The notes below the pieces were generated by a model that was not told the DNA's origin, searched no databases, and was given only the letters and a program-made list of their open reading frames with translations. The translations under genes were made by a program, and so were the position numbers. A stretch of DNA of 55,847 bases from Bacilli bacterium (GTDB taxonomy: Bacteria; Bacillota_I; Bacilli_A; ML615J-28; CAG-698), in NCBI GenBank assembly GCA_028702495.1, contig JAQVOS010000003.1, forward strand, positions 1-55,847, in the 5' to 3' direction. Numbering within the stretch: the first letter of the stretch is position 1; the number at the start of each line of letters is the position of its first letter. This document shows positions 37,377 through 55,306 of the stretch, one piece after another.

Positions 37377-37423
37377 TTGACAAAAAAGTGTGGAACGCTT
37401 ATAATATAGATAAACATCTATAT
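37377..37423 (+). promoter_or_regulatory. Consensus promoter with an overlapping palindromic ArsR-type operator
   Basis: TTGACA-17 nt-TATAAT (37377-37405); palindrome ATATAGAT-aaac-ATCTATAT (37404-37423). Confidence 0.75.
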
Positions 37424-37435
37424 AGAGGAGGAATT

Positions 37436-38744: not shown

Positions 38745-38759
38745 TATAAGGAGAAAAAA

Positions 38760-39232: not shown

Positions 39233-39261
39233 TTTACAAACGTTTTCAATTGTGATATAAT
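39233..39261 (+). promoter_or_regulatory. Promoter of precursor-1 operon
   Basis: TTTACA-17 nt-TATAAT with extended -10 (TGa); spacer contains cre-like AAACGTTTTCA. Confidence 0.65.
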
Positions 39262-39299
39262 TATTATAGCACATTTTTTTATTCAAAGGAGGTATAAAT

Positions 39300-39419
39300 A
39301 TGAATGAAAAAAAAGTTTACGAAATTCCAAAGGTTGAAATTGTAATGTTTAAAAATGATGAAATCATTACATCTAGTGGTGAAATGGATTTTAGCGAATT
39401 TGATGAAGAAGGAGAATGA
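39300..39419 (+). CDS. Unannotated 39-aa RiPP-precursor-like peptide P1: MNEKKVYEIPKVEIVMFKNDEIITSSGEMDFSEFDEEGE
   Basis: Translated by hand; strong RBS AAAGGAGGT, own promoter, YxxP leader motif, near a PqqD/rSAM cassette. Confidence 0.8.
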   Translation: MNEKKVYEIPKVEIVMFKNDEIITSSGEMDFSEFDEEGE

Positions 39420-39424
39420 AAAAC

Positions 39425-41902
39425 ATGAAAATGAGCAAAATCGTATTAAAAGCAACATTTTTATTAGTATCCATTGTTGCATTATTTTGCGTAGGCACTC
39501 GAATCTTTGTTAATGCTGCCCAAACCATTAATATGACCAATGGTGCACAAATTCGAACAACAGGGGAACGGCAAGGACTACGCTTTACAACGACAGTAGG
39601 GGAAGCTTTCGCTGAAGGATCAGAACATGGTTATTACCTTGCAAAAGGTGAACATGACATTGCTGACATGATAGACGCTATAGAGGCCTCAGCATCAACA
39701 ATTGATGGTAATAAATTAGTTAAGAAAGTGTTTGAAGATAGTGACCTTACTTTTAGTTTGGTTATTTATAATATTCCACAAAGTGCCTATAAACAAGACA
39801 TTACTGCTCTTGCTTACATCAAAGAGGGAGAAGTCTTTACATTTCCAGAAATTGCTGTAACAAGAAATATTGCTGAAGTAGCAGTAGCAGCATATTCATC
39901 TTATGAGGACGATGTTCCTGCCATTATTGCAAGTGCTGCAACTCAACAAGTAAATTATAATTTTAATGGTGGTGCATTTGTTGCTGAAAAAGAATTTACT
40001 ATTACAAGATATAATGCTGATACGACAGGTGCACATGTCAAAATTAGTAATGCAGCATCGGGTCAATACAGTATGTATTATCGTGTTTTGTATTTAGAAG
40101 AAACAAGTAATCCAAATGTTTTTGAAATCGTAAAATATACTAATGCTACTACTGTTGATACTTCTGGAGCATATGACTTATATATTGGAGCACATGATAC
40201 AGCCGTTGACCATACTGGTTACTTGACGGTTTTGTCATTAATGGCACCATCATCAATAGGTAAATATATTAGTCTAAGTTCAATTCCTACCGTAGCTGGA
40301 ACTGTTTCAGTAAAAGCAAAAGTATTCTCATCAAGTGAATTTACATATGCTTGCGAAAATGCAGTTCAAAATTATATCGGAGCAACCACTCCTAAAAACG
40401 TCCAAAAAGATTATTATGATTTTGTTGGATGGTATGATAACGCAGAATTCACGGGAGACGCTGTTACAGCCATTGCAGCTGGTAATAAAGGCTCTGCAAT
40501 GAATCTTTATGCTAAATTTACGCCTACTATCTACACAATTAATTATGAACTGGACAGTGGTAGTTGCTCTGATGAGGCGCGTGCAACAAGTTATACCTAT
40601 GTAAGTTCTGCTATTGCACTTCCATTGAGTGGAACCATGAGTAGGGATGGTTATGATTTTGTTGAATGGAATACAAAAGCAGATGGAACTGGGGAAACTA
40701 TAACCAGTATTCCAACTGGATCTCATGCTAATATCACAGTATATGCTATTTGGGCGAGCCAAGTTCCTACGGTAGTTGATTTGTCAAGTGAAGATGCTGC
40801 GATCATTAATGCTATCAATCCAACAAAATTTGTTAATACTTTATTTACAGCAGGTCGTTTCACAATTGGTGAAAATACTTATAAAGTAGGTGAAGGAGAA
40901 TTATTTGCAACGATAGCTTCAGCATTATCTGCAGCATCTACTAATGATGTTATTTATGTATTTGCTGGAACTTATTCGGATGTCGCCAATATTGCTGTTA
41001 ATAATCTGACATTAGTAGGGCCTGGTGCAAATAAAACTTTAGTTCATACTGATACTTATTCTGTAAATGTTGTTACTGAAGCATTGATTACTAAAGAGCT
41101 AATTATTGATAGTGGTGTATCTAATACTACTATTAAAGGCTTTTCAATGACAAATCAAATTACCATTTCTGGAAATGCGACTGTCAATATTTCTAATATC
41201 ATTTTTGGTGATATGACGGGTTTTGATACAGGATTTGATGGATCAATTAGAATTAAAGCAGCATCAAGCAATATTACGATTGATAGGGTATATTTCACTA
41301 GTAAATGTGCAAATCGTGGTGTTCATGTTAATGCTTTAACAACAAACTTCACATTAACAAATTGTGTTGTTTTAGATTCTGTAAGTGATCTTGTCGATTT
41401 CTGTAGATTTGGTCAAAGCAATACTTTATGTGCTAAAGGGACAATTATTTTTTCTAATAACTACATCCAAAAATGTAGTCAATCTGGCTTTATGGATAGA
41501 GTACCTAGTACTGCAAGTTATATATTTATCCACAATACATTTGATACTGTTCCAGCAGCTATATATATGAGAGCAAATGATAGTATAGGAGCTGCATCAT
41601 ATGAAGTTAAATATAATACATTTAATAAATGCGGAACTACTACACTTGATTGGGATGATGTTGCATTAACCACGGGTGCAAGTACAATTGTTAACTTTAA
41701 CTATAATATAATTACAAATAGTTATGATATGAGTGGTTGTTACAATATTAAAGTTAGAAATGACAGTGGAACAATCAATTGTGCAAATAACTATGTTGAT
41801 ACTGCATCACAACCTACTGACAATTTAAATGCTACTGGATTTACATTATTAGATAATGCTGAAGCAGTTGCTACTGCTTATGCTGCATATTTAGCTGGTT
41901 GA
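39425..41902 (+). CDS. Secreted surface protein, N-terminal part (GAQIR..GLRF domain, InlB B-repeats, right-handed beta-helix); ends at an in-frame TGA
   Basis: Signal peptide; YDFVGWYDN/DGYDFVEWN repeats; ATIASALSAAS.NDVIYVFAGTY. Confidence 0.75.
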   Translation: MKMSKIVLKATFLLVSIVALFCVGTRIFVNAAQTINMTNGAQIRTTGERQGLRFTTTVGEAFAEGSEHGYYLAKGEHDIADMIDAIEASASTIDGNKLVKKVFEDSDLTFSLVIYNIPQSAYKQDITALAYIKEGEVFTFPEIAVTRNIAEVAVAAYSSYEDDVPAIIASAATQQVNYNFNGGAFVAEKEFTITRYNADTTGAHVKISNAASGQYSMYYRVLYLEETSNPNVFEIVKYTNATTVDTSGAYDLYIGAHDTAVDHTGYLTVLSLMAPSSIGKYISLSSIPTVAGTVSVKAKVFSSSEFTYACENAVQNYIGATTPKNVQKDYYDFVGWYDNAEFTGDAVTAIAAGNKGSAMNLYAKFTPTIYTINYELDSGSCSDEARATSYTYVSSAIALPLSGTMSRDGYDFVEWNTKADGTGETITSIPTGSHANITVYAIWASQVPTVVDLSSEDAAIINAINPTKFVNTLFTAGRFTIGENTYKVGEGELFATIASALSAASTNDVIYVFAGTYSDVANIAVNNLTLVGPGANKTLVHTDTYSVNVVTEALITKELIIDSGVSNTTIKGFSMTNQITISGNATVNISNIIFGDMTGFDTGFDGSIRIKAASSNITIDRVYFTSKCANRGVHVNALTTNFTLTNCVVLDSVSDLVDFCRFGQSNTLCAKGTIIFSNNYIQKCSQSGFMDRVPSTASYIFIHNTFDTVPAAIYMRANDSIGAASYEVKYNTFNKCGTTTLDWDDVALTTGASTIVNFNYNIITNSYDMSGCYNIKVRNDSGTINCANNYVDTASQPTDNLNATGFTLLDNAEAVATAYAAYLAG

Positions 41903-44230
41903 ACTACCAGTGATAGAATTAATCATTCTATTGATGAATTAGATGATGATTTTAGTTCTATCACGGTAATCTCAAGTGATTTATCATTACCCACTGAAAA
42001 TACAACGTATCAAACAAGCATTTCATGGAATTCAAGTCATACACATATTGTGAGTAATACAGGGGTTTTTACAAAACCTTATCACGATACAGCCATTACA
42101 TTAACAGCGACCATATCATATGGGGAAGATAGCACGACCAAAGATTATACTTTTAATGTTGAAAGTGATTTTAAAGATTTGTCACAAGGAATCATTGCTG
42201 AATACTTGTATACTAGCATATCCAGTACAAGTGACTACACGTTTGAACAAGCCAACATATTGTTTGTTGCTTTTGGAGCCGCTAGTGCTACAGGAACGAT
42301 TAGCAATGCTTCCTCCATCGGATCAACCATTACTACGGATGTTGTGACTAAAGCCCATAACAATGGAACTCGTGTATTATTGTCTATTAATGGTGCTTCT
42401 AATTTAAGTGCGATTGCAGCTGATGCCACTTTAAGAACAACATTTGCTAACAACATTGTAAGTTTTATCAATACATATGGTATTGATGGAATCGATATTG
42501 ATTGGGAATTCCCTTCTAGTGCAGAAGCCACCAATTTCACATTGTTGATGAAAGAAATCTACGAAAAAGTAAAAGCAAATAATCCCTATCATTTAGTTAC
42601 AGCTGCTACTGGCATTGATACATATGTTCGATATGATTTAGAAAATTCAGTACAGTACTTAGATTATGTCAATATTATGACCTATGATATGCAAAGTTCT
42701 ACAACAGCAACGAATCATTCAGCACTTTATTATAAGAGTGGACATTGCTATAAAGCTATCAGTAATGCTTACACCTATTATGTAACCAATTTAGGATTAA
42801 ACGCCAACAAATTAATATTAGGAATTCCTTTCTATGGTAAAACATTTACGAATACGAATGGATTAGGAACAAGTGCTACATATTCAGGTTCAATAACATA
42901 TTCTTTAATTGTCTCTACTTATTTATCTAATGCAAATTATACCGAATATTGGGATAGTGATTGTCAAGTGCCTTATTTATATAGTGCTGTAGATAGAACT
43001 TTTATAACTTTTGATAATCCCACATCGATTTCATTAAAGATTCAGTATGCAGCTAGCAAAGGATTTGCAGGAATCATGTCTTGGCAAGATGGTCAAGATA
43101 GTAATGATATCTTATTTAGTGCTATGGTTGAGGGTATGAATGATAAAAGGATATCATTTAGTGCCAATATTGGCTTGTTAGGCCTACTTATTCAAGGAAA
43201 CAAATCGACCGTTTTACACAAAGATGTGAATTTTGGTGGATCAATAACCAATGAAGTATATGGTTCAGTAAATCTATATTCAACAAATAGTATCAGTATC
43301 AATACAAGTAAAAAGATGGCTGATGGCGATTTAGGCAGCGATAAAACTTATGGACTCATGGATTCATTAGAGTTTATTACAATTCATGATACTGGTAATA
43401 CATCCACAACTTCTAGCGCTTTAGCAAATACGAATTATATGCTTGATACTCCTAATGTGTCATGGCATTATACAGTAGGTGATAGTTCAATCTATCAAAA
43501 CATGAGTGAGGCATATACTGCTTACCATGCTGGTAGTGGGGCAAGAGTCTTTGCTTTACAAGATACAGGCATTGATGCTTCATACTATGGGAATAACACA
43601 CCGATCATAACATTTGATAATAATGGATATTATGCCATTAATGGTATTTCTACAACTCTTCGTCCTTATAGTGATGTGAGTGGAACAACTAAAGATAGTA
43701 CTAAATATACCACTTCACAAATAACCGAGTTTGGTATTTACTGGGCAATTGGTGCAAATGGTCACTATTATTTAAATAAAACATACTATAATAGCACTTA
43801 TGCTAAAGTGTGTAATTTTGGTGGAAATACAAACTCTATTGGGATTGAAACAACTGTCAATAACGGATCTGATATTTATCAAACATGGCAAAATACCGCC
43901 AAATTAGTAGCAGATATTCTAGTGAGAAATAATCTAACCCCAAATGAAGTTTTATCTCATAATGCATTTAGTGGTAAAGACTGTCCTCATACATTGTTGA
44001 ATGCGAATCTATTTGATGAATTCATAAATATGGTTATTATGGAGTACAATATTAGAAAGTACTATTCGGACTATACCATCGTTTTTGAAAGTATGTCTCC
44101 TGATGTTATTGATAATGATGGAAGAGTAATTGTTCCAATTACTAATGACACGACTGTATATTATAAAATTACCATTAGTAAAGAGGACATTAGTGAAAGT
44201 GTAATCCTTTCTTCCATAATTCCAGCATAA
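41903..44230 (+). CDS. Ig-like, GH18 chitinase-like, Amidase_2 and Ig-like region; same frame as the upstream ORF, with no signal peptide or evident RBS
   Basis: SDLSLPT..SISWNSS..TLTATI; DGIDIDWEFP; IHDT, SWHYTV, AYHAG, SIGIE, SH...KDCP; frame open from 41903. Confidence 0.8.
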   Translation, partial: TTSDRINHSIDELDDDFSSITVISSDLSLPTENTTYQTSISWNSSHTHIVSNTGVFTKPYHDTAITLTATISYGEDSTTKDYTFNVESDFKDLSQGIIAEYLYTSISSTSDYTFEQANILFVAFGAASATGTISNASSIGSTITTDVVTKAHNNGTRVLLSINGASNLSAIAADATLRTTFANNIVSFINTYGIDGIDIDWEFPSSAEATNFTLLMKEIYEKVKANNPYHLVTAATGIDTYVRYDLENSVQYLDYVNIMTYDMQSSTTATNHSALYYKSGHCYKAISNAYTYYVTNLGLNANKLILGIPFYGKTFTNTNGLGTSATYSGSITYSLIVSTYLSNANYTEYWDSDCQVPYLYSAVDRTFITFDNPTSISLKIQYAASKGFAGIMSWQDGQDSNDILFSAMVEGMNDKRISFSANIGLLGLLIQGNKSTVLHKDVNFGGSITNEVYGSVNLYSTNSISINTSKKMADGDLGSDKTYGLMDSLEFITIHDTGNTSTTSSALANTNYMLDTPNVSWHYTVGDSSIYQNMSEAYTAYHAGSGARVFALQDTGIDASYYGNNTPIITFDNNGYYAINGISTTLRPYSDVSGTTKDSTKYTTSQITEFGIYWAIGANGHYYLNKTYYNSTYAKVCNFGGNTNSIGIETTVNNGSDIYQTWQNTAKLVADILVRNNLTPNEVLSHNAFSGKDCPHTLLNANLFDEFINMVIMEYNIRKYYSDYTIVFESMSPDVIDNDGRVIVPITNDTTVYYKITISKEDISESVILSSIIPA

Positions 44231-44278
44231 GACATGCTAAAAAATAATATTTAATCTATTAAGATTATATTTCTTTTT

Positions 44279-44308
44279 AAGGAGGGACTTAAAGTTCCTC
44301 CTCTTTTT
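44279..44308 (+). terminator. Intrinsic terminator
   Basis: aggagggact-taa-agttcctcct followed by a T-run. Confidence 0.7.
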
Positions 44309-44389
44309 CGTTGTGATAGCTATAATAGACACATTTCTTCTTTTCTTTTGAAGAAATATTTGCTAAAATAGGATAAGGAGGACATTCTC

Positions 44390-45094
44390 ATGTATTATAA
44401 GATTGCTGATCTCATTGTGGATATGAATCCTCAATATGCCCCCTTAATCAATCAAATTGCCCCTTATAAAATAGATGATGTTCCCGAAGTTGTTCATTGC
44501 GTGATTTCTCAAGGCAATAAAACCATTACGGAACAAAACAAAAAATATCCCCGATTATCTAGGGGTGAAGTTGAGTACTTATTATATGGAGCTTATTTTT
44601 ATGATGCTTTATTGAAATATCAAGGAATCCTTCTTCATTCATCTTGCGTTATCTATCAAGGAGTAGCTTACCTCTTTTCTGCGAATTCAGGTGTGGGTAA
44701 GTCAACTCATACAAGTATTTGGTGCCGCATTTTTCCAGAAGCTTTTATTCTAAATGATGATAAACCTGCCCTCAGATTTGATGAGGATCGATTATATGCT
44801 TATGGAACTCCTTTTTCCGGGAAAACCAACCAAAATGTGAATGCGCGATATCCTGTTGCTGGAATTGCATTTATTCATCGGAGTGACATCAATAAAAGTG
44901 AACCTATTTCCACTAAGCAAGCTCTCGTTCGCTTTATGCAGCAAACATTAAAGCCCCATGATGAAAGTCGTTTTGATCTCATCGTTCAAACACTCGAATG
45001 TATCTTAAAAACTACAAGGTTTTATTCACTCGGCGTCAATATGTCAGATGAAGCCGCACTCATGGCCTATGATACGATGAGGCAAGATCGCTAA
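44390..45094 (+). CDS. HprK-related P-loop kinase-like protein A
   Basis: LLHSS, FSANSGVGKST, ILNDDKP, YGTPFSGK. Confidence 0.75.
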   Translation: MYYKIADLIVDMNPQYAPLINQIAPYKIDDVPEVVHCVISQGNKTITEQNKKYPRLSRGEVEYLLYGAYFYDALLKYQGILLHSSCVIYQGVAYLFSANSGVGKSTHTSIWCRIFPEAFILNDDKPALRFDEDRLYAYGTPFSGKTNQNVNARYPVAGIAFIHRSDINKSEPISTKQALVRFMQQTLKPHDESRFDLIVQTLECILKTTRFYSLGVNMSDEAALMAYDTMRQDR

Positions 45095-45134
45095 ATTGTT
45101 CATCACATAGTCAAAAGAGCAAATAAGTAAGGTA

Positions 45135-45163
45135 TTGCGAAAGAACGATTGTTGTGATAAAAT
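45135..45163 (+). promoter_or_regulatory. Internal promoter of the modification cassette
   Basis: TTGCGA-17 nt-TAAAAT with extended -10 (TGa). Confidence 0.55.
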
Positions 45164-45189
45164 ATTAGTAATATTTCTGAGGATATACT

Positions 45190-45615
45190 ATGAAAGAATT
45201 AACCTATCAAGAGATTATTGATCAATATGGTGGCTTTATTTATTATCCTGTTGGAACGAGCATGCTTCCTCTCATTGTGGAGGGAGTTCACTCCGTCAAA
45301 CTTGAAAAAATTAATCGCCCCATTCGTAAGTATGATATCGTCTTATATCATCGAGACAATGACCAATATGTTCTTCATCGTGTGGTTCGAGTTCATGAAG
45401 ATTTTTATGATATGAAGGGTGACAATCAATTTATGATTGAAAAGAATATTCGCAAAGATCAAGTGATTGCGATTATGAGTGGCTTATATTGTCAAGAACA
45501 AATCGTACCCCTCCAAGGTTTTCGATATCAAATTTCCATACGAATGAATCTTTGGTTTCGCCATTTTCGTCGACTCTTTCAAAAAATTAAGCATTTACTT
45601 AAACGCAAAAAATAA
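45190..45615 (+). CDS. S24/S26-family peptidase A
   Basis: GTSMLP, DIVLY, YVLHRV, KGDN; basic amphipathic C-terminus. Confidence 0.85.
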   Translation: MKELTYQEIIDQYGGFIYYPVGTSMLPLIVEGVHSVKLEKINRPIRKYDIVLYHRDNDQYVLHRVVRVHEDFYDMKGDNQFMIEKNIRKDQVIAIMSGLYCQEQIVPLQGFRYQISIRMNLWFRHFRRLFQKIKHLLKRKK

Positions 45616-45624
45616 GAGGGCTTT

Positions 45625-46347
45625 ATGAAAAAAGTATCAATTCTTTTACTTCTAATCACAATGTTTTTATTTAGTGGCTGTAAAGGTACGCCTCTAACAT
45701 CGCTCGAAGTTTCTTTTGAGTCCATTCGGTTGATAAATGAAGGATTAGAGGTTACTTTAAAACCTAATAGCGAGATACTTAAACAAGATAAACTCCATAA
45801 AATTGGGATAGCGATTGGTTGTTCTAAAGACTCCTCTTTATCAATCGAAGAAGCAATCAATGTGATTACGATTGATTTTGAAAAAGAGACTGATCAAGAA
45901 GATTATATTTTTCTTTTTGAAAACATTGATGAGAGTTTTTATAACGTAAGTCTTACAATTCAACCTTATCTCGTACTTAATAATGAAGAAATAGAATATC
46001 TAGCCAATCATTCAACGTGTATATTGTATCAACTAGCAAAACAAGAAGAACATACATATTCAGAGTGGGTTGTAAGTGTTGTAGAGGAGAAAGTGATTAG
46101 TGAGATTCGCTTAACTGCTGATTATCAAAATTATACAGTTCAGTCCCTCAGTGAAGGGTATCAAGCCATCCTTGAAACCGATTATAACTACATCACTATT
46201 ACCATCACCATTCTAGATGATTATTTACTTCGCACCACCTTTCAGTTAATTATCAATGATACAGTTTTAGTCCCCAAGAACATTCAACCCGATTATCGAA
46301 CCATTACTTATATGATTGATGATCCGAATTGGACACAACCTTACTAA
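45625..46347 (+). CDS. Lipoprotein of unknown function
   Basis: Lipobox FSGC; C-terminus IDDPNWTQPY. Confidence 0.7.
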   Translation: MKKVSILLLLITMFLFSGCKGTPLTSLEVSFESIRLINEGLEVTLKPNSEILKQDKLHKIGIAIGCSKDSSLSIEEAINVITIDFEKETDQEDYIFLFENIDESFYNVSLTIQPYLVLNNEEIEYLANHSTCILYQLAKQEEHTYSEWVVSVVEEKVISEIRLTADYQNYTVQSLSEGYQAILETDYNYITITITILDDYLLRTTFQLIINDTVLVPKNIQPDYRTITYMIDDPNWTQPY

Positions 46348-46377
46348 AAAACTGCAAAACTTTTTACATTGTAAAAT

Positions 46378-47550
46378 ATGAATGAAACGAGGAATTACTT
46401 GATGAAAAATAAAGACATAATTACCATTCTATATCATATTATTCACCCGGAAGTTTCTTGTTCGAACCCATTTACTTATAAAGAGGTTGAGGGCTTATTC
46501 AAGTTTCACAGTTTAGAGCCTTTCCTTTTTCTTGCTTACAAACAAGGACTGCTTGTAACTTCTCCTGAAGAAGAAACAAAAATTACAAAACAATATCAAA
46601 TCGCGATTTACAAAATGTCAGCTCAAGAAGAGGAATTAAAACTGATTAAAGAAACGCTTACCTCAAATCAAATTCTCTTTTTACCGATTAAAGGTTCTTG
46701 GGTTCGTGCTTGTTACCCTTCGCCTGAACTTAGAACCATGGCTGATCTCGACATTTTAGTTCCAAAAAATAAACTAAAAGTGGTCAAAGCTTGCATGCTA
46801 TCTTTAGGGTATACCAGTGAGCATGAAGGTGGAAACCATGATGTGTATCACAAACGTCCCTTTATGAATGTTGAAATGCATCGCAATATGGTCGATGAAT
46901 CCTATACTTTATCGAAATATTATCGTAACATTTGGGATCGACTGAATCCCAATGAAGGCGCCTACGAGTGTGCCCTTACGCCCGAAGATCATTACTTATT
47001 CCTCATTGCTCATAGTGCAAAGCACTATGGAAATGGAGGAACTGGGGTTCGCTCCGTTCTTGATATCTATTTTTATTGGAAAAAATTTCCTACCATGAAT
47101 AAAGAATATATTCTTGAAGAACTCCATAAACTTGAACTCGTTCAATATGAGGCAAGTCTATACGCTCTCTCTCAAAGCTGGTTTGAGGGTGTAATAGAAT
47201 CTGAAGAAATCACCATGATGGGAGAATATCTCCTTTCAAGTGGTGTTTACGGAACGACAACACATGCCGTTGCATCCGCGCTTAGTTCTATGGATGAAGC
47301 AACATCTCTTTCTTCGCGTAAATGGAAATATCTATGGCATCGGGCTTTTCCTCCCTTTAAAACGATGAAGCAACTCTATCCATCCTTGAAGGTATTCTTT
47401 GTATTTCTTCCTTTTTATTACCTCCATCGACTACTCAAGGGATTATTCACAGGAAAAGTGGCTCAACAAACCCAACAACTAAAACACATCAATGAACAAC
47501 AAGTACAAAAGAATCAACAAATAAAAGACAAAACAGGAGTACAAAAATGA
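46378..47550 (+). CDS. Nucleotidyltransferase family protein (NTP_transf_5-like)
   Basis: LPIKG..YPSPELRTMADLDILV, VEMH, H.AKH...G.GVRSVLD. Confidence 0.85.
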   Translation: MNETRNYLMKNKDIITILYHIIHPEVSCSNPFTYKEVEGLFKFHSLEPFLFLAYKQGLLVTSPEEETKITKQYQIAIYKMSAQEEELKLIKETLTSNQILFLPIKGSWVRACYPSPELRTMADLDILVPKNKLKVVKACMLSLGYTSEHEGGNHDVYHKRPFMNVEMHRNMVDESYTLSKYYRNIWDRLNPNEGAYECALTPEDHYLFLIAHSAKHYGNGGTGVRSVLDIYFYWKKFPTMNKEYILEELHKLELVQYEASLYALSQSWFEGVIESEEITMMGEYLLSSGVYGTTTHAVASALSSMDEATSLSSRKWKYLWHRAFPPFKTMKQLYPSLKVFFVFLPFYYLHRLLKGLFTGKVAQQTQQLKHINEQQVQKNQQIKDKTGVQK

Positions 47551-47810
47551 AAGTAAAAAAAGGGTTCATGCTACGTGAAGTAGCTCAAAATTTTGTTGTG
47601 GTTCCCGTAGGAAAAGCAGCGATTGATTTTAATGGAATTATCACTCTAAATGACACTGGCGCTTTCTTATGGAGTCAGTTGCTAGATGACATTGAATTTG
47701 CTGAATTGAAAGCAAGACTCAAGAAGGAATATCAAGTGGATGATAAAACTGCAAGCATTGATATCAAAAATTTTCTTGCTGAACTAGATCAAGCTAAATT
47801 AATAGAGTAA
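47547..47810 (+). CDS. PqqD-family RiPP recognition element
   Basis: 87 aa; FMLREVA..VVVP..FNGIITLNDTGAFLW..L..EY.VD. Confidence 0.9.
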   Translation: MKVKKGFMLREVAQNFVVVPVGKAAIDFNGIITLNDTGAFLWSQLLDDIEFAELKARLKKEYQVDDKTASIDIKNFLAELDQAKLIE

Positions 47811-47836
47811 AATCCATTATTACAATGGGAGGCCCC

Positions 47837-48844
47837 ATGAACTATATTACGCTTCGAAATCAAATGATTCAACAAGCAGCCAAAACCAAAACCCCGATTA
47901 TGGGTGAGTTTGAACTGACTCCCTCATGTAACCTAGCTTGTAAAATGTGCTATGTTCGTGAGACACAATCCCAAAAAGAATTAACAACGAGTCAGTGGAA
48001 AGAACTTTTTCTAGAGGCAAAGAAAGAAGGCCTCCTTTTTTGCTTGCTTACAGGGGGGGAAATCTTTCTTCGTAAAGATTTCCAAGAGCTTTATGAATAT
48101 ATATATGATTTAGGTATTCGTGTATCTTTATACACCAATGGAACATTAATTACGGATGAAGTGGTTTCGTTTTTATCTTTAAGAAAACCCGACTTTATTG
48201 GAATCACTTTGTATGGCGCGAATCCCGAGCAATATAAAGAAATCACAGGTTCATCCCTCGCGTTTCATCAAGTAGAAGCAGGAATTAAGCGACTTCAAGA
48301 GGCAAATATTCCTCTATTGGTTCGAACCATAGCCATCCAATCAATTTATCAAAATCTTGATGAAGTCATTCAATATTTTAAAGATCATCATTTTTCGGTA
48401 TCCTATAGTTTATATGTCGGACCTCGGCGTAGTTGCCCTGGAAGTGAAAGTGTTGATCGCCTTACTCCCTCTGAACTTGTTGATTATAAGAATCAATTTC
48501 TAGAAGCTTTTGGAGTATCAAAATCGATTGAAGTGAATGATTGCTTTAGTAGCTTTCGATGCGTTGCGGGAAAAAGTTCTTACTTTGTTCGTTGGGATGG
48601 AACAATCATGCCTTGTGCCATGCTCGAAGTACCTCGATTTGATGCTCTTCTTTCCTTTAAAAAAGCATGGGGCGATTTGGGTGAAGCGATTCAGAAAGTC
48701 CCGCTGTGTGATGAGTACGCCACTTGTTCGCTTCGATCTACCTGCATTCAATGCCCAGCAAGTCGGTATCTTGAAGGTGGATTCTCAAAATGTAGTTCTT
48801 ATTTAAAAGAAATAGCACGGGAACTTAAGGAGAAAGAGTCATGA
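47837..48844 (+). CDS. Radical SAM/SPASM-domain protein
   Basis: ELTPSCNLACKMCY, LTGGE, YTNGT; C-terminal C-x17-C and C-x5-C-x5-C-x2-C-x12-C; ATG 47837 follows GGAGG. Confidence 0.9.
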   Translation: MNYITLRNQMIQQAAKTKTPIMGEFELTPSCNLACKMCYVRETQSQKELTTSQWKELFLEAKKEGLLFCLLTGGEIFLRKDFQELYEYIYDLGIRVSLYTNGTLITDEVVSFLSLRKPDFIGITLYGANPEQYKEITGSSLAFHQVEAGIKRLQEANIPLLVRTIAIQSIYQNLDEVIQYFKDHHFSVSYSLYVGPRRSCPGSESVDRLTPSELVDYKNQFLEAFGVSKSIEVNDCFSSFRCVAGKSSYFVRWDGTIMPCAMLEVPRFDALLSFKKAWGDLGEAIQKVPLCDEYATCSLRSTCIQCPASRYLEGGFSKCSSYLKEIARELKEKES

Positions 48845-49686
48845 AAGCCTATAAAATTGCCTCCATTCTTCTAGGCTTTTCTCATCCCGATAACCCTTTG
48901 ATTGATGATCGATTGGTGCATTATGAAACACAAGAATCTCCTCAGTATGAAATGAGTGTGCTATATCACCCTTGTATTACGATACAAGAAGAAGTGACAA
49001 TGACTCATGAACAAGTTTGTACATATGAGGATTCAGATAAAACCATTACTTATACATACAATAAAAGTCATCAATTACTCTCGAAAGTAACCATTGCAAA
49101 AGATATGAAGCGAATTGTGATTGAATTATCAGAAGTATTGGGATCGAAACTTCCAATGATGGAATATGTTACAACGGGGCTTTATTTCTTTGAGATTGCC
49201 CTTCATGCGGGATATTTACCACTTCATGCATCCGCCATTATTCACGAAAGCAAAGCGGTTCTATTCTCTGCTCCATCAGGAGTAGGTAAATCTACTCAAG
49301 CAAATTTATGGAAAACGATGAATCCCAAAATTGAAATCTTAAATGATGATAAACCATTAATCTTATGTAAAGATGAAATACGCGTATTTGGAACCCCATG
49401 GTGTGGAAAAACATTTCAGAATAAGAATACCTCCGTTCCTCTAAAAGCCATTACTTTCATTGAACAAGGATTAGAAAATGTGATTACACCTCTCTCAAAT
49501 GAAGAAAAAATGATTCATTTATTTAAGAATACACATCGTAGCCAAATCTCAACTAATCTTGAAACGACCATAACCAGTATGCAAACCCTTATTGAAAAAG
49601 GAAATCTTTTCTTCTTTACTTGTACAAAAACACAAGAAGCATATGACACTTTATATCAATACTTATACGGTGAAGTCTATGATTGA
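48841..49686 (+). CDS. HprK-related P-loop kinase-like protein B
   Basis: LHASA, FSAPSGVGKST, ILNDDKP, FGTPWCGK. Confidence 0.75.
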   Translation: MKAYKIASILLGFSHPDNPLIDDRLVHYETQESPQYEMSVLYHPCITIQEEVTMTHEQVCTYEDSDKTITYTYNKSHQLLSKVTIAKDMKRIVIELSEVLGSKLPMMEYVTTGLYFFEIALHAGYLPLHASAIIHESKAVLFSAPSGVGKSTQANLWKTMNPKIEILNDDKPLILCKDEIRVFGTPWCGKTFQNKNTSVPLKAITFIEQGLENVITPLSNEEKMIHLFKNTHRSQISTNLETTITSMQTLIEKGNLFFFTCTKTQEAYDTLYQYLYGEVYD

Positions 49687-50119
49687 TAAGAAAATATCAA
49701 TTGAAGTAATGGGACCAATTATTGAAGAAACGATAAAACAAGATGGAACCGTTAAACTTCAAATATCTGGAAATAGCATGCGTCCCTTTTATATTCACCA
49801 AGAAACAATTGTTTGTTTGGAAAAGGTTCATTCGCCTCTTAAACAATTCGATGTTGTCTTTTATCGCAATGAAAACGAGCAGTATCTTCTTCATCGCATC
49901 ATCAATATTAAAGGAAGTACTCTTGTGATTTGTGGAGATGCTTTATCGCAAAAAGAATATATCGATGAATCTTTAATCATAGCTCGTGTACAGTATCATG
50001 AGCGAAATGGAAAAGTCACACCCTCTTCATCAAAGCGATATCAAATGAAAGTGAAATGGTGGAATAAACTCAGTCCACTACGAAAATACCTCATTCGGTT
50101 CTTTCCTTATAAAAAATAA
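49679..50119 (+). CDS. S24/S26-family peptidase B
   Basis: GNSMRP, DVVFY, YLLHRI, CGDA; basic amphipathic C-terminus. Confidence 0.85.
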   Translation: MIDKKISIEVMGPIIEETIKQDGTVKLQISGNSMRPFYIHQETIVCLEKVHSPLKQFDVVFYRNENEQYLLHRIINIKGSTLVICGDALSQKEYIDESLIIARVQYHERNGKVTPSSSKRYQMKVKWWNKLSPLRKYLIRFFPYKK

Positions 50120-50122
50120 CAT

Positions 50123-50157
50123 AAGAAGCCATTGCTTGATTCAATGTGCTTCTTTTT
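50123..50157 (+). terminator. Terminator closing the cassette
   Basis: aagaagc-cattg...caatg-t-gcttctt followed by a T-run. Confidence 0.7.
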
Positions 50158-50194
50158 GTATAAAAATGTAATGTTAAAAAAATATAAAAAGTTC

Positions 50195-50224
50195 TTGATT
50201 TTATGATATCGTTCGTGATAAAAT
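50195..50224 (+). promoter_or_regulatory. Promoter of precursor-2 operon
   Basis: TTGATT-18 nt-TAAAAT with extended -10 (TGa). Confidence 0.6.
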
Positions 50225-50272
50225 GATGTTAATGTTGCAAGATGCGACAAATAAAAAAGAAAGGTATTTTTT

Positions 50273-50401
50273 ATGATTCAAGAAGAAAAAAAAGAGTATC
50301 AAAAACCGGTCATTCAAGTGGTGAAATTTACCCTTGAAGAAGGGATTGCGGAAAGCACGATGAGTGGAGAAGGGCCAAATTTAATTTGTTTGGATGCATA
50401 G
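50273..50401 (+). CDS. Unannotated 42-aa RiPP-precursor-like peptide P2: MIQEEKKEYQKPVIQVVKFTLEEGIAESTMSGEGPNLICLDA
   Basis: Translated by hand; RBS AGAAAGGT; aligns to P1; stop codon overlaps the RBS of the next gene. Confidence 0.8.
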   Translation: MIQEEKKEYQKPVIQVVKFTLEEGIAESTMSGEGPNLICLDA

Positions 50402-50411
50402 GAGGATGAAT

Positions 50412-53003
50412 ATGAAAAAATTAAAAAGTATTTTATTCGTCTTTATCGCTTTAATGCCTTTTATCATGGTTGGAACCATTGTAAAAGGAGCACCGACTAC
50501 AGTAAATGTTAGTGTCACTAGTTACTTTGGTGAAGATAACGAAGTCACAAATAATGCCAATGGTAAAGCATATGGCACAAAATTTTCCTTTAATGCAAAT
50601 CTGCAAGCCAATGATCATTCATTTGCATTTTGGATTGTTAATGGAGTCGTTCGTAAAGATATTACTACCGTTGACCACCCATTCTTTGCCACTGAAAATT
50701 TAAATCTAAAAGCTATTTTTGCACCAACAGATAAATATGCTGTTGTTTTCATGGACTCTAACGGGAAACTTTTAAAAGTTGAGTACGTCAGTCCTAATGG
50801 AGATGCAACAGACATCACAGAAGGATTACCATCAAAACCAGGATATCAAGTTTCAACAACTGCTAAATGGAGTGGTTCACTCACTGGAATTACTGGTAAT
50901 ACGGTACTAGTATTACAATATGAAAAAATAAATGACGCTACTTATGCTGTCACTGTTAACAATGGTACAGGAAGTGACACATATGATTATAATGAACTTA
51001 TCACGGTGGTTGCGAATGCTCCCACTGAAGGACAATATTTTAGTCATTGGGAATCTAGTGGAAAAGTTGTGAGTCGTCAAGCTACTTATCAATTAACAGT
51101 TTTAAAAGCAATGACTTTAACAGCTGTTTATACTAGTGAACAACCAACAACTGTTGCTTCAATATTCTTAGAAAATAAGTTGGATTTGAAAGAAGGATAT
51201 TTTAGTTATCAAGGACACTTTGAATTACCAGAAGGATATGTAGTCGTTGAAGTGGGAGTTCTTTATTCAAGCACCCTAGACACTTTCGATGTTGACACAA
51301 CTTCAGTATCTAGAAAAGTCATTGGCAAATACAATGCTGAAAATGGAGAATTCTTAGTTAGTGTAGAAAAAAACAACACTGGACATCTTCGTTCTTATTT
51401 AATTTACTCAAATGTATCAACCGGACAAATAAGCACAGTCTATAGTGATATTGTTACTACGAACCCGAATGACTTATTCATTAGTGAATATGGAGAAGGT
51501 GGAAGTAATAATAAGTGGATTGAGATATATAATCCAACAAATGGAACCATTGATTTATCAAATTATTCATTAAAGCTTTATACAAATGGTTCAGGAACAG
51601 CCTCTAATCCTTTAAGTTTATCTGGTACACTTGCATCTAAATCGACTTATGTGGTTTACAACAGCGCAGCCGTTACCGACATCTCAAGTAAAGGTCAAAT
51701 TGCTGCTTCAGTAACGTATTTCAATGGTGACGATGCAGTGACATTAGAGAAAAATGGTGAAATTGTTGATATTATTGGGATGGTTGGAACCGACCCAGGC
51801 ACTGCCTGGACATGGGATGATGGATCAACATTGGATATGACTTTAGTGAGGAAATTTGGTATTTATTATCCAAATAGTACATGGACAACCTCTGAATGGG
51901 ATGCATATCCTCAAGACACATTTGCTTACATTGGAAGTCATCAAACGACAGAAATCATGCCGATCACTATTACAGTTTCTGGCGATACACGTGTTTTGGA
52001 AACTAAAACAATTCAGCTATCTTCATCTGTGTCGCCTTCTGGTGCAGTACCTACCGTTGATTGGTCATCAAGTAATGAATCAATCGCTACTGTAAGCTCA
52101 ACAGGTGAAGTGACTGGGGTTGCTGCAGGAACTGTCACAATTACTGCCACCTCAGTTAAAGATTCAAATGTATATGATGAACACATTATTATAGTCACTG
52201 AGCCCAATTATTTTGATATTAATGTAGGTTCAAATGATGATAGTTATGGAACCGTCTCAACAAATAATCCAAGCGTAATCGAAGGTGGTAGTGTTAACAT
52301 TACTCTTACACCTGCAACTGGGTATCGTTTAGTTTCACACACAATAAACAGTGAAACCACAACATATGAAAATCAAACATCTACATTAACAATAACAATA
52401 AATGATATTACATCTAACCAAACAGTGAGTGGTCTATTTGAAGAAATACCCACAGGAACCATGACGGAGCAATACGTTTTCAATTTTGGAACAGACAATA
52501 AAACAGGATATGCTCTCGGTACTGTTACTTTCGACAATAATGATGGCATATCATATACTCTTAATAAAAATAGAGCTCAAATTAATACCTTAAGTGGATA
52601 TACTCCAGCACTAATATTAGCGCCGATTAAAGGGTACTTAGTCGCATATGTGGAAATTGACCTGACAAGTGTTTCATATAATGTTGAAGAAATTAGTTTT
52701 AAATATACGGCATGGTCCTCAAGTGCAATTACAAATATAAAAGACACAACAAAAGCAACAAACCCGGTCTTCGTATTGCAATACTATAATACAAATACTA
52801 GCGTATGGGAAACATTGACTAGCAAAACATTAATATCAAATCTTGTTAATACCGTTACAACATCATATCAAGAAATCGTATATACTGTTTCAGGAAAAGG
52901 AAAATATAGACTTTTGGTACAAATGGATAGTGCTACTAGTGCAACCAATACAAATTATGCAATGGTTGTTGATGACTTCTCGATCCGTGCAATGTCGGAA
53001 TAA
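50412..53003 (+). CDS. Secreted multidomain protein, N-terminal part (divergent InlB B-repeats, lamin-tail domain, Big_2 Ig domain)
   Basis: Signal peptide; DLFISEYGEGGSNNKWIEIYNPT (LTD); VDWSSSNESIATVSSTGEVTGVAAGTVTITATS (Big_2). Confidence 0.8.
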   Translation: MKKLKSILFVFIALMPFIMVGTIVKGAPTTVNVSVTSYFGEDNEVTNNANGKAYGTKFSFNANLQANDHSFAFWIVNGVVRKDITTVDHPFFATENLNLKAIFAPTDKYAVVFMDSNGKLLKVEYVSPNGDATDITEGLPSKPGYQVSTTAKWSGSLTGITGNTVLVLQYEKINDATYAVTVNNGTGSDTYDYNELITVVANAPTEGQYFSHWESSGKVVSRQATYQLTVLKAMTLTAVYTSEQPTTVASIFLENKLDLKEGYFSYQGHFELPEGYVVVEVGVLYSSTLDTFDVDTTSVSRKVIGKYNAENGEFLVSVEKNNTGHLRSYLIYSNVSTGQISTVYSDIVTTNPNDLFISEYGEGGSNNKWIEIYNPTNGTIDLSNYSLKLYTNGSGTASNPLSLSGTLASKSTYVVYNSAAVTDISSKGQIAASVTYFNGDDAVTLEKNGEIVDIIGMVGTDPGTAWTWDDGSTLDMTLVRKFGIYYPNSTWTTSEWDAYPQDTFAYIGSHQTTEIMPITITVSGDTRVLETKTIQLSSSVSPSGAVPTVDWSSSNESIATVSSTGEVTGVAAGTVTITATSVKDSNVYDEHIIIVTEPNYFDINVGSNDDSYGTVSTNNPSVIEGGSVNITLTPATGYRLVSHTINSETTTYENQTSTLTITINDITSNQTVSGLFEEIPTGTMTEQYVFNFGTDNKTGYALGTVTFDNNDGISYTLNKNRAQINTLSGYTPALILAPIKGYLVAYVEIDLTSVSYNVEEISFKYTAWSSSAITNIKDTTKATNPVFVLQYYNTNTSVWETLTSKTLISNLVNTVTTSYQEIVYTVSGKGKYRLLVQMDSATSATNTNYAMVVDDFSIRAMSE

Positions 53004-54127
53004 CTGACCCTATAGATGAAACACAGCCCAATATAACATCTGAACCATCCTATGAAAGTGGGGTGGTTCAGTTATCTGTAGGGGATAATTGGACATTACC
53101 TTCTATTTTCGCAATCGATGATACAGATGGTAATATCTCCAATCGGGTTGAATCAAACTTATTAGCTATAGATGATTTCCATGTGAGTGGTAATGAATAT
53201 CATTTCACTACTTCTGGTTCTTATGTCATCTCATTCTCTGCAAGAGATAATGCAGACAATGTCGGAACTCTCACACTCACCATTGAGGTAGTAGCACCTA
53301 CTTATAATTGGTCCAGTATTTCATATTATTCCTCATTATCATCAAGTGATGATGTTTTAACTGATCTTGCGTTGTTACTACGAAGCACGGTCGATTATGT
53401 ATCTTATGGGGATGCAAGATACGTCTATACAACCTATGAGAACGGCAAACAAGTTATCTTATATGATGTTCCAACATCTCCTAGTTATGGAAAAGTAACA
53501 GCTGAAGGACTTGCTGGATGGGGAGATGGTGGCAATATTACTGGAGATGGGTTCTCTATTTCTATCAATCGTGAACATGTATGGGCTTGTAACGATATGA
53601 GAATTATGCCAAGTAATCAAGATCGCACTTTAACAACCGGATACGTTAATTATGTTTTAAATGATGGGTCATTTGACTATCGTCCTGATAATGAAAACCT
53701 AGGTCATTTTAGTGATCTACATAATCTATGGAATGCTTTAGCGAGTCCTAATAGTACCCACTCCGATCATTTCTATGGAGAAGAGAACGGCTCCTCTGTA
53801 GGACCCTATTTAACCAATGAAATCTTTTATCCAGGGGATGAATATATTGGCGATATCGCAAGAATCCTTTTCTATATGACGCTTATGTATCCTCATTTGA
53901 CTCTTGTTGAAGAGGGAGATACGAATGCCGTCGAAGGAACCATTTATTATGGCTATTTAGACATGTTATTACAATGGAATGAAGAAGATCCTGTGAGTTA
54001 TTATGAAATCACACGCAATCAAACGATTTATGAAACTCAAGGAAATCGTAATCCCTTTATTGATTATTATAGTCAAGATATCGCTGCTTTTGTTTTCGCA
54101 AATGGCGATCCAAACATTTCTGATTAA
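52976..54127 (+). CDS. Ig-like domain plus endonuclease I domain; probably the frameshifted C-terminus of the upstream gene
   Basis: Frame open from 52976; NREHVW, DLHNL, GDIARILFYM, LLQWNEEDPV, RNQ.IY..QGNRNPFID. Confidence 0.82.
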   Translation, partial: LLDPCNVGITDPIDETQPNITSEPSYESGVVQLSVGDNWTLPSIFAIDDTDGNISNRVESNLLAIDDFHVSGNEYHFTTSGSYVISFSARDNADNVGTLTLTIEVVAPTYNWSSISYYSSLSSSDDVLTDLALLLRSTVDYVSYGDARYVYTTYENGKQVILYDVPTSPSYGKVTAEGLAGWGDGGNITGDGFSISINREHVWACNDMRIMPSNQDRTLTTGYVNYVLNDGSFDYRPDNENLGHFSDLHNLWNALASPNSTHSDHFYGEENGSSVGPYLTNEIFYPGDEYIGDIARILFYMTLMYPHLTLVEEGDTNAVEGTIYYGYLDMLLQWNEEDPVSYYEITRNQTIYETQGNRNPFIDYYSQDIAAFVFANGDPNISD

Positions 54128-54136: not shown

Positions 54137-54180
54137 AACTCTTGTAGTGTGATTGATACGAGTCGCACTACAAGAGTTTT
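54137..54180 (+). terminator. Intrinsic terminator
   Basis: 17-bp stem aactcttgtagtgtgat / gtcgcactacaagagtt followed by T's. Confidence 0.75.
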
Positions 54181-54238
54181 ATTTTTGTTCTTGAAGAATT
54201 ATGAAAAGATAGTATAATAATAACTAATGGAGGTTAAC

Positions 54239-55306
54239 ATGAAAAAAAGTTTATTGATTCTTTTATGTATCCTTTTTTTAGTATCTTGCACCAAAAAGGT
54301 GGACCCAATTGAACCTCCGAGTAACATTTACTATCACGAAGAAAGCTTAACATGGAGTGCTATCTATGGAGCAACGGGATATCAGTGTCTCATTGGGCGC
54401 TTTGTTTATGAAGTGAGTAGTTCTGAATTCGATACGAGTAACCTCGATTCCGGAACCTACGAAGTGAAAATCATTACCCTTCAAGGGAAAGCATACTCTA
54501 AACCCTCAGAGGCGTATACTTTCACCATTATTCGGGATACCACTTTTCCTGTGAATATCCGCATTGAAGAAGATGTCCTATTGTGGGATGTAGTAGACCA
54601 AGCACTAGGGTATATTGTTGATATCAATGGTGAACAAATCATTGTGAATACGAACGATTATGCTTTATCCTCCCTTCCAATCAACACTTTTTATGGCATC
54701 TGTCTCTCCACATTATATCCTCATGATCAGCGCTCAAGCTTCAGTTTACCGCTGGCTTATCACACTTTTGTTGATGCAAGTGATGTTTGGGAAGTCACCT
54801 ATCTCAAAGGGCAAGAAGAGCATGTAATCATTGATTTAACCCCTCTAAATCACCCTGTAATCGCATTACACGATGAAGACGATAACTTATTAATCTCAAG
54901 TGATATTTTGATTGAAGAGGATACCCTCACAATGGCAAAGTATTACCTTGATGAGTATTCCTATGGAAAATATATCTTTTTCCTCTATACAAGTGATGAA
55001 AAAATTGTGATACACCTAACAGTCGGTGATACTCGCGAGCCGCATGTTGTTGGAACTGGATCCTATCAATATCAAAGTGGCTCTTCCATTGAAATGGTTT
55101 TTGAACTCTATGATGGTGTGATTTCCAGTATCAGTGGCGGAACCATTACCCCAGAGGATTACACCATTGAAGGAAATACCCTCATTTTATCATCTACTTA
55201 TCTTGATCGCGAATTTGGATCTTCAGGTCGTGAACTTTTAGTCCTAGGAGTGGTCCTAGAATCCAATGCCCATTTCGTCATTTCTTATCAGTTCATTAAT
55301 AGGTAA
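54239..55306 (+). CDS. Lipoprotein with Fn3-like repeats and X2-like Ig modules
   Basis: Lipobox LVSC; LTWSAIYGATGY / LLWDVVDQALGY; DYTIEGNTLILSSTYL. Confidence 0.65.
   Translation: MKKSLLILLCILFLVSCTKKVDPIEPPSNIYYHEESLTWSAIYGATGYQCLIGRFVYEVSSSEFDTSNLDSGTYEVKIITLQGKAYSKPSEAYTFTIIRDTTFPVNIRIEEDVLLWDVVDQALGYIVDINGEQIIVNTNDYALSSLPINTFYGICLSTLYPHDQRSSFSLPLAYHTFVDASDVWEVTYLKGQEEHVIIDLTPLNHPVIALHDEDDNLLISSDILIEEDTLTMAKYYLDEYSYGKYIFFLYTSDEKIVIHLTVGDTREPHVVGTGSYQYQSGSSIEMVFELYDGVISSISGGTITPEDYTIEGNTLILSSTYLDREFGSSGRELLVLGVVLESNAHFVISYQFINR

Follow-up and report, generated by a model that had tools for sequence, protein, structure and literature searches.

Lasso peptide clusters of the paeninodin/pseudomycoidin type (PsmA, B1, B2, C, K, N, D) combine a YxxP leader and a discrete PqqD-like recognition element (RRE) for peptides that ribosomes make and that are modified post-translationally (RiPPs) with an HprK-family kinase and a nucleotidyltransferase-fold enzyme. 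For pseudomycoidin, the HprK-family kinase PsmK phosphorylates the lasso peptide, and the nucleotidyltransferase-fold protein PsmN adds hexoses (PMC6993621). Likely counterparts of these elements are present in a 55,847 nt stretch of DNA from a Bacilli bacterium (contig JAQVOS010000003.1), referred to as the window throughout. Here, a cassette of eight genes lies between two operons for large secreted proteins, each of which is headed by a small open reading frame (ORF) for a precursor-like peptide, P1 or P2 (Table 1). The PqqD-family protein of the cassette has lasso-type chaperones as its top NCBIfam matches (lasso_PqqD_Strm, 8e-9; lasso_PqqD_Bac, 5.7e-7; both sub-threshold). Judged by sequence, the PqqD-like RRE (B1) and the YxxP leader of the lasso clusters can thus be assigned, and the cyclase and the B2 protease cannot. 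Domain scans of the cassette and the rest of the window detected no asparagine-synthetase-like lasso cyclase, transglutaminase-like B2 protease or ABC exporter; their absence from the cassette had been stated in a preliminary description of the locus, and it extends to the whole window. Cyclase and B2 protease were also missing from the related loci examined. Instead, the window encodes a radical S-adenosylmethionine (rSAM) enzyme with a SPASM domain and S26-type peptidases, and its predicted cores, unlike those of the lasso peptides, do not end in Ser.

The SynChlorMet cassettes (ScmC, TIGR04249; ScmE, TIGR04250; ScmF, TIGR04251; and a PqqD homologue) share with the window an ScmC-type P-loop protein, PqqD and a PqqE-like rSAM/SPASM enzyme, and the best NCBIfam matches of the window cassette include ScmC and ScmE. 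However, the equivalog level is not reached (ScmC, 24 and 45 bits versus a cut-off of 125; ScmE, 91 bits versus 400). The window cassette has one rSAM enzyme where SynChlorMet has two, and it adds S26-type peptidases and an NTP_transf_5 protein. Candidate precursors are evident in the window, whereas, to our knowledge, none has been identified in the description of SynChlorMet.

With the maturases of sactipeptides and ranthipeptides (SkfB, AlbA, PapB/CteB), the system shares an rSAM/SPASM enzyme that, among solved structures, is closest in sequence to SkfB (6efn, E 6.8e-20), which forms thioethers, the need for an RRE and, in most cores of the peptide family, a Cys followed by acidic residues. 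In contrast to these maturases, the RRE of the window is a separate protein and not an N-terminal domain, the cores are highly conserved and have a single Cys (none in P1), and the precursors reside within secreted-enzyme operons. In the QhpC/QhpD, pyrroloquinoline quinone (PQQ) and mycofactocin systems, too, an rSAM/SPASM enzyme acts on a small peptide, the latter two systems employing a PqqD-type chaperone, and a conserved core serves an enzyme-related function and not an antibiotic one. These peptides are, however, unrelated in sequence to those described here, and the window lacks the downstream tailoring enzymes of those pathways. We classify the system as a probably undescribed variant among RRE-dependent radical-SAM RiPP systems. 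No literature on the peptides or the gene set was found in a search that left subscription journals largely outside, so that an earlier description is possible; a paper on DNA-degradation loci of Izemoplasmatales (PMC8289736) mentions neither.

The peptides P1 and P2 and their family

P1 and P2 are shorter than 60 amino acids (aa) and are therefore missing from the ORF track of the window. When a profile made only from peptides of other organisms was compared with the 1570 six-frame segments of the window, P2 (E 1.3e-14) and P1 (E 7.6e-9) were retrieved, with the runner-up at E = 3, which bears out the earlier proposal that both are real. Each ORF ends at the ribosome-binding site or the start of the next gene (at most 10 nt away or overlapping), and each has a ribosome-binding site of its own, strong for P1 (AAAGGAGG) and weaker for P2 (GAAAGG).

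A profile of seven peptides retrieved 38 small proteins of 39 to 63 aa from the protein database, all unnamed or "hypothetical" and none with a Pfam domain; no curated family for the peptides exists in Pfam or NCBIfam. Together with about 40 copies in related loci, these proteins make up the family, the two sets not having been de-duplicated. The hosts are metagenome-assembled genomes (MAGs) of the Izemoplasmatales/Acholeplasmatales type. The family consensus is K-x-Y-E-x-P-x-I-E-I-V-E-F-x-L-E-E-S-I-A-T-S-G-D-F-G-S-x-T-L-C-G-E-E-I-Y, with a predicted core of 14 residues (GDFGSATLCGEEIY). Across 35 aligned peptides, Y, P and one S are invariant, and conservation of F, I, A, C and E reaches 90% or more; the residues I, A and S of the proposed leader-core junction are all at least 90% conserved or invariant. 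P1 has the leader YEIPKVEIVMF, the junction I-T-S|S and a predicted 14-aa core (SGEMDFSEFDEEGE) without Cys and with a net charge of -7. P2 has the leader YQKPVIQVVKF, which faintly matches the paeninodin leader model (E 0.13), the junction I-A-E-S|T and the predicted core TMSGEGPNLICLDA, and it represents a subtype whose motif is G-I-A-E-S-x-x-S-G-E-N-L-I-C-L-E-E. P2 and at least 90% of the family members have the Cys; it is missing from P1, from P0158 and from one further peptide found at two loci (L019 and L035; related loci are designated by L numbers).

In the last 19 codons, the copies differ almost only synonymously, and the leader part is more variable. Indeed, two paralogues at one locus (L008) have 11 synonymous and 0 non-synonymous differences in this stretch. 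This dominance of synonymous differences indicates that the peptides are translated and under purifying selection, and the predicted core would be their best conserved part, above the leader. An explanation of the core conservation by the GEE codons serving as the Shine-Dalgarno motif of the next gene was ruled out because these codons vary synonymously.

In the L019/L035 peptide (10001-10111 in both contigs), a Gly replaces the conserved Cys (...ADFGGGAIGTEGLFE). A gene for a secreted LTD-type protein follows it, and no cassette was found within 10 kb on contigs of 0.6-2 Mb. This peptide could be a cassette-independent relic, or it could differ in function.

The putative modification cassette and its linkage to the peptides

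The cassette (44390-50119) is a single block of tightly packed genes on the + strand, with overlaps of the ATGA type at 47547 and 48841 and an 8 nt overlap at 49679. All eight genes named in the preliminary description are present, and the labels ScmC and SipW/Sec11 type refine its kinase and peptidase assignments. S26 peptidase B probably starts at 49679, where the ATG overlaps the stop codon of ScmC_B, rather than at 49592. The cassette lipoprotein has neither a family match nor a homologue in the related loci.

Related loci were gathered in two ways, via the contexts of rSAM and ScmC homologues and via peptide-based scans of genomes and metagenomes; the latter used a 13-sequence subset of the 35 peptides, so that the loci found are biased toward the "LCGEEIY" subtype. 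In most loci, the cassette adjoins a peptide. A full or partial set of rSAM, ScmC, PqqD, S26 and NTP_transf_5 genes lies beside a peptide in L001/L002, L003/L022, L005, L006, L008, L010, L012-L014 and L016, as well as in L017, L023, L028, L031, L033 and L036. The nearest kin of both the cassette proteins and the peptides come from MAGs labelled Bacilli bacterium, Candidatus Izemoplasmatales, Acholeplasmatales, Tenericutes and Mollicutes. The recurrent Izemoplasmatales order (L003/L022, L008, L010, L014, L016, L031, L036) is a peptide with an LTD-type secreted protein, a CBM_X2 lipoprotein, rSAM, ScmC, PqqD, S26 and NTP_transf_5, followed by a second peptide with an LTD protein and an LTD/Lactamase_B/Endonuclease_1 nuclease. 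In L001/L002, a peptide-GHL10 pair precedes an A-type ScmC (65% identity between ScmC_A of the window and the L001 protein), NTP_transf_5, PqqD and rSAM, and in L005, PqqD, rSAM, ScmC and S26 precede a peptide and an LTD protein. The window is a superset of these arrangements, its ScmC_A side resembling L001 and its ScmC_B-S26 side resembling L005. A minimal set of peptide, GHL10 secreted protein and rSAM lies between nusG and rplK in L006 (6562-10984), and within 10 kb there was no sign of PqqD, ScmC, S26 or NTP_transf_5.

The link to the gene downstream is even stricter. The next gene starts -22 to +21 nt from the peptide ORF in 23 of 23 cases of a first set and in 16 of 16 of a second set that shares sequences with the first. 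In both sets, it always carries a signal peptide, and its product has 437 to 2294 aa where complete. Moreover, the peptide subtype tracks the downstream protein: CYS(V/T)(D/E) cores precede GHL10 proteins (L001, L006), and LCGEE or LICL cores precede LTD proteins with a VTSYF N-terminal domain.

At a larger evolutionary distance, in Dehalobacter (L004), PqqD and rSAM are followed by two Cys-rich peptides and then by ScmC and S26. These peptides have the leader and junction Y-x-K-P-x-[LF]...L-T-A-E-E-x-F-A-x-x-S and are weakly similar to the family (one scores E 8e-3), a pattern that would fit if leader and junction were conserved and the core were free to vary. On two Clostridia-type contigs (L021, 3363-7830; L020, 3976-8726), ScmC directly follows a gene for a secreted protein, a 981-aa GH25 or a 1303-aa LTD/CotH protein, and in L021 polysaccharide-synthesis genes come after the ScmC module. 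After the rSAM gene of L001 (9755-9916) and L002 (9677-9838), a 53-aa ORF starts with MSNYKIASLV, comparable to the N-terminus MKAYKIASIL of ScmC_B; it has the look of a truncated second ScmC, left over in a lineage that has retained just the A type.

The rSAM enzyme has Cys35/39/42 invariant across 59 homologues. The C-terminal Cys246, 264, 301, 307 and 310 are invariant as well, and positions 295/298 and 323/328 alternate. By sequence, it has the CX3CX2C motif and the seven Cys expected of a SPASM enzyme; the Pfam SPASM match is weak (E 0.0057).

For ScmC_B, an AlphaFold (AF2) model based on 35 homologues reached a pLDDT of 96 and a pTM of 0.92, and its best Foldseek matches in the PDB are ATP- and GTP-dependent phosphoenolpyruvate carboxykinases (PEPCK; E down to 6e-7, TM 0.4-0.5). 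In the homologues, the Walker A motif G-V-G-K-S-T and several further residues are invariant, and precomputed Pfam annotation assigns the domain PF27840 to P0159 of the window and to its homologues. The matches of ScmC to HprK_rel_A (E 1e-4) and HprK_rel_B (E 4e-3) are weak. HprK/P kinase domains share the PEPCK-like P-loop fold class, and the earlier label "HprK-like kinase" is thus reasonable at the level of the modelled fold. A profile search found 4,314 representative clusters of ScmC at E <= 1e-30 and 10,185 at E <= 1e-10, and no characterised member was found. Natural ScmC-PqqD fusions of about 363 aa exist, which argues for ScmC working on an RRE-bound peptide. ScmC also occurs within proteins of 614-623 aa with about 330 additional N-terminal residues, possibly an rSAM domain (fused and extended examples: P0298, P0348; P0171, P0173, P0175).

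The peptidase motifs G-x-S-M-x-P, H-R and G-D are invariant in seven homologues, the two of the window and five from related loci, and correspond to the predicted Ser-His pattern of SipW/Sec11-type signal peptidase I; matches to the NCBIfam models sigpep_I_arch, SipW and sigpep_I_bact are all sub-threshold. A membrane anchor is absent from all seven (maximal 19-residue Kyte-Doolittle value <=1.32, versus about 2.5 for signal peptides of the window), and therefore these peptidases should act in the cytoplasm.

Table 1. Coordinates of the peptides, the cassette genes and the flanking features in the window
Feature	Position	Strand	Evidence or remark
Promoter-like site TTTACA-17-TATAAT with TG, ahead of P1	39233-39261	+	11/12 matches, consensus only
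P1, 39-aa precursor-like peptide	39300-39419	+	MNEKKVYEIPKVEIVMFKNDEIITSSGEMDFSEFDEEGE; E 7.6e-9
Secreted 828-aa protein, signal peptide and Flg_new repeats	39416-41902	+	ends at in-frame TGA
In-frame continuation of left gene: aBig_2, GH18, Amidase_2	41903-44230	+	no start codon before 42050
Terminator-like hairpin after left operon	44280-44302	+	hairpin
ScmC-like P-loop (PEPCK/HprK-type) protein A	44390-45094	+	NCBIfam ScmC E 1.6e-5, under cut-off
S26 peptidase homologue A (SipW/Sec11 type)	45190-45615	+	TIGR02228 E 1.2e-5; G-x-S-M-x-P, H-R, G-D motifs
Lipoprotein	45625-46347	+	lipobox LFSGC
NTP_transf_5 nucleotidyltransferase-fold protein	46378-47550	+	E 1.1e-44; D-L-D motif
PqqD-family peptide-binding protein (RRE)	47547-47810	+	E 5.2e-14
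rSAM/SPASM enzyme	47825-48844	+	Radical_SAM E 1.8e-23; CX3CX2C at Cys35/39/42
ScmC-like P-loop protein B	48841-49686	+	E 6.8e-12; PF27840 in precomputed annotation; Walker A GVGKST
S26 (S24/S26-like) peptidase homologue B	49679-50119	+	TIGR02227 (signal peptidase I) E 2.7e-7; Peptidase_S24 E 0.0015
Promoter-like site TTGATT-18-TAAAAT with TG, ahead of P2	50195-50224	+	9/12, weak consensus match
P2, 42-aa precursor-like peptide	50273-50401	+	MIQEEKKEYQKPVIQVVKFTLEEGIAESTMSGEGPNLICLDA; E 1.3e-14
Secreted LTD/Big_2/Flg_new_2 protein, 869 aa	50394-53003	+	start likely 50412, after GGAGG ribosome-binding site
Ig-like and Endonuclease_1 frame	52976-54127	+	overlaps end of 869-aa gene in other frame
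Terminator-like hairpin after right operon	54137-54178	+	18-bp stem
CBM_X2 lipoprotein	54227-55306	+	conserved neighbour of the system in L003, L005, L008, L010, L016

The proposed pathway and alternative readings

The conserved peptide family, its linkage to the cassette and the signal-peptide gene that always comes next support the core of the preliminary description, an RRE-dependent peptide-modification system with precursors heading the flanking secreted-enzyme operons. We consider it likely that the central cassette encodes a RiPP-type pathway for which P1 and P2 are the translated precursors; this is very probably a new pathway of ribosomal peptide maturation, with a product linked in some way to secreted nucleases and glycosidases. 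In the proposed pathway, the discrete PqqD protein would bind the leader K-x-Y-E-x-P-x-I-E-I-V-x-F via its lasso-like YxxP beta-strand motif and present the peptide to the rSAM/SPASM enzyme, which would crosslink the acidic C-terminal core of about 14 residues. A SkfB-like rSAM/SPASM enzyme and a near-invariant C-x-E together suggest a thioether ring; the crosslink would most probably connect the near-invariant Cys with a neighbour, for example the near-invariant Glu two positions on. The ScmC P-loop proteins may phosphorylate the peptide, and the NTP_transf_5 protein may then add a nucleotide or a sugar, comparable to PsmK and PsmN. Finally, the cytoplasmic SipW/Sec11-type peptidase would cut off the leader after the invariant I-A-x-S motif. 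Signal peptidases require small residues at positions -3 and -1, and the I-A-T-S|G junction obeys this rule, matching a cytoplasmic S26 homologue, so that cores of 14 residues are predicted. The window has two peptide subtypes and two pairs of ScmC and peptidase, and each pair adjoins one peptide operon, which suggests that subtype-specific kinase/peptidase pairs share one PqqD/rSAM/nucleotidyltransferase core.

Two other chemistries were considered for the core. A lasso-like core of P1, with the N-terminal residue linked to Asp or Glu at positions 7-9, was dropped as no cyclase is present. PQQ- or mycofactocin-like chemistry on a C-terminal aromatic residue is unlikely, as the identity of this residue is not constant (Y, F, W, H or none) and it often is not C-terminal.

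Several observations weigh against the assignment of the peptides to a RiPP-type pathway of the cassette. No exporter, immunity gene or receptor is conserved near the loci examined, and ScmC and the rSAM enzyme score far under the NCBIfam equivalog cut-offs. Copies of the peptide occur with no cassette within 10 kb (L009, L019/L035, L027), L009 coming from the MAG that also has the cassette-bearing L008. In the ScmC modules of L007, L020 and L021, of which the L021 module has PqqD and S26 and no rSAM, no YxxP peptide turned up in a motif scan. The preliminary description would have been contradicted by homologous cassettes lacking such peptides; close relatives do have them, and none was detected in these distant modules. 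A kinase activity of ScmC is predicted from fold and motifs. The Cys-less P1, P0158 and L019/L035 peptides imply that a Cys thioether is not the universal modification. Finally, a conserved core is unusual among RiPP natural products. A conserved core, together with a precursor gene that in every case opens a secreted-enzyme operon, favours a role as a partner, a signal or a cofactor-like compound over that of a hypervariable antibiotic, and the correlation of subtype and downstream protein, together with the lack of a conserved exporter, immunity gene or receptor, also argues against a classical bacteriocin. A role of the product in signalling or protein maturation, as had been proposed, is speculation.

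The strict adjacency to signal-peptide genes, the tracking of the downstream protein type by the peptide subtype, a core better conserved than the leader and the missing exporter would all be expected if the cassette matured the peptide to a dedicated partner of the co-transcribed secreted proteins, such as a crosslinked subunit, an inhibitor or immunity factor or a maturation factor, and not to a free natural product. There is a precedent in QhpC, which is crosslinked by the rSAM enzyme QhpD and then becomes a subunit of a secreted enzyme. In addition, an acidic core would mimic nucleic acid if it were phosphorylated or nucleotidylated, and the canonical locus encodes nucleases. However, the peptide itself lacks a signal peptide, and the proteins encoded downstream exit unfolded via Sec; furthermore, there is one peptide per operon and not one per protein, and the downstream proteins are diverse (GHL10, GH18/amidase, LTD). 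We regard a partner function of this kind as possible, though not likely.

If the mature peptide were instead a secreted autoinducer that controls the public-goods enzyme operon that it heads, its position as first cistron of extracellular nuclease and glycosidase operons, the promoter-like site of each peptide operon and a core conserved as expected of a ligand with a fixed receptor would be accounted for. Yet neither a sensor kinase nor an RRNPP-type receptor nor an exporter is conserved in any locus examined, and an autoinducer is unlikely.

Still less probable is that the small ORFs are cis-regulatory upstream ORFs, acting by translational coupling or as arrest peptides, and that the cassette acts elsewhere, possibly on secreted proteins, with the S26 homologues as SipW-like dedicated signal peptidases. 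The adjacency to the downstream gene is indeed strict even where no cassette is found within 10 kb (L009, L019/L035, L027), and the distant ScmC-PqqD-S26 modules L020 and L021 adjoin genes for large secreted proteins and have no recognisable peptide. However, the YxxP motif of the leader is typical of RRE ligands, PqqD domains bind peptides, and cassette and peptide are adjacent in most loci. Moreover, S26 homologues without a membrane segment have no access to Sec substrates at the membrane's outer face, the peptides lack the hydrophobic segment of known secretion-monitoring arrest peptides, and the Dehalobacter peptides are encoded inside the cassette and not ahead of a secreted protein gene. 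That P1 and P2 are chance ORFs, for which only their absence from an ORF track without frames below 60 aa could be cited, can be dismissed in view of the profile E-values (down to 1e-14) against the 1570 window segments, the dozens of homologues and the purifying selection.

The flanking operons, the genomic setting and implications

The preliminary description had assigned to each flanking operon its own promoter and terminator and a giant secreted hydrolase. Promoter-like sites and hairpins are present at both operons, and the site at 39233-39261 is the best promoter-consensus match between 38700 and 55847. As a class, however, promoter-like matches are not enriched (80 found versus 78 expected from shuffles). 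No known RNA element was matched by Rfam in the region of the peptides and the cassette, the leader regions of the peptides included.

The genes are large and their products are secreted, as described, but both are interrupted, and the proteins directly after P1 and P2 have no recognised catalytic domain. On the left, a frame of 1604 codons (39416-44230) is split by a single in-frame TGA at 41900-41902. The stretch from 41903 to 42049 has no start codon, yet it codes for half of an aBig_2 domain: translated from 41903, the domain covers profile positions 19-87 of 89 (E 5.8e-19), versus E 1.5e-8 from the ORF start at 42050. The TGA could be a nonsense mutation, a readthrough site or a sequencing error. 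An alternative code with TGA as a sense codon was ruled out, as TGA ends 11 of 39 long + strand frames, including those with the ATGA overlaps of the cassette. On the right, the 869-aa LTD protein has no catalytic domain, and its orthologues come after the peptide in most related loci. The Endonuclease_1 frame opens 28 nt before the stop codon of the LTD gene and has no signal peptide of its own; relatives have a separate gene for a 1155-1462-aa LTD/Lactamase_B/Endonuclease_1 protein in its place. A frameshift, real or an assembly artefact, is likely in this stretch (52976-53063). The ftsH gene of the window is likewise in two pieces in different frames (FtsH_ext, 20454-21119; N-terminally truncated AAA/M41, 21182-22450). 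As ftsH is normally essential, its split hints at indel errors in the assembly, a plausible cause of the interruptions of the large genes, too.

The window is chromosomal DNA of low GC content (about 37%) with tRNA genes, lysS, ftsH, hpt, tilS, a glycogen cluster and fatty-acid synthesis genes. A fluoride riboswitch (25087-25160; Rfam RF01734, 37.8 bits) immediately precedes the Na_H_Exchanger-family gene at 25217-26437. In 37328-38999, just upstream of the system, genes for an ArsR-family regulator, an ArsP-type permease and a Thioredoxin_3 protein follow one another; L007 (1864-3136) also has ArsP-type permease and Thioredoxin_3 genes less than 8 kb from the system, which suggests shared synteny.

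P1, P2 and their relatives are clear candidate substrates for the large ScmC family; they come with a leader motif and a cleavage site, both predicted, and with a minimal set of genes suitable for expression. Several features are unusual for RiPPs: the precursor as first cistron of a secreted-enzyme operon, a core conserved above the leader, a leader peptidase that is a signal-peptidase homologue without a membrane anchor, and the lack of an exporter. It has been proposed that Izemoplasmatales specialise in degrading extracellular DNA in sediments (PMC8289736). The canonical locus of the system is an Izemoplasmatales LTD/nuclease locus, and therefore the peptide may bear on the production or control of nucleases. 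A more far-reaching and doubtful reading is that the large secreted nucleases and glycosidases of wall-less Bacilli have an obligate companion, namely a 14-residue peptide that is crosslinked by the rSAM enzyme, phosphorylated, and either nucleotidylated or glycosylated, be it as inhibitor, escort, anchor or operon-specific signal. If this were true, it would be a RiPP acting in protein secretion or the control of exo-enzymes and not as an antibiotic, and the peptides would be the first substrates for the orphan ScmC family.

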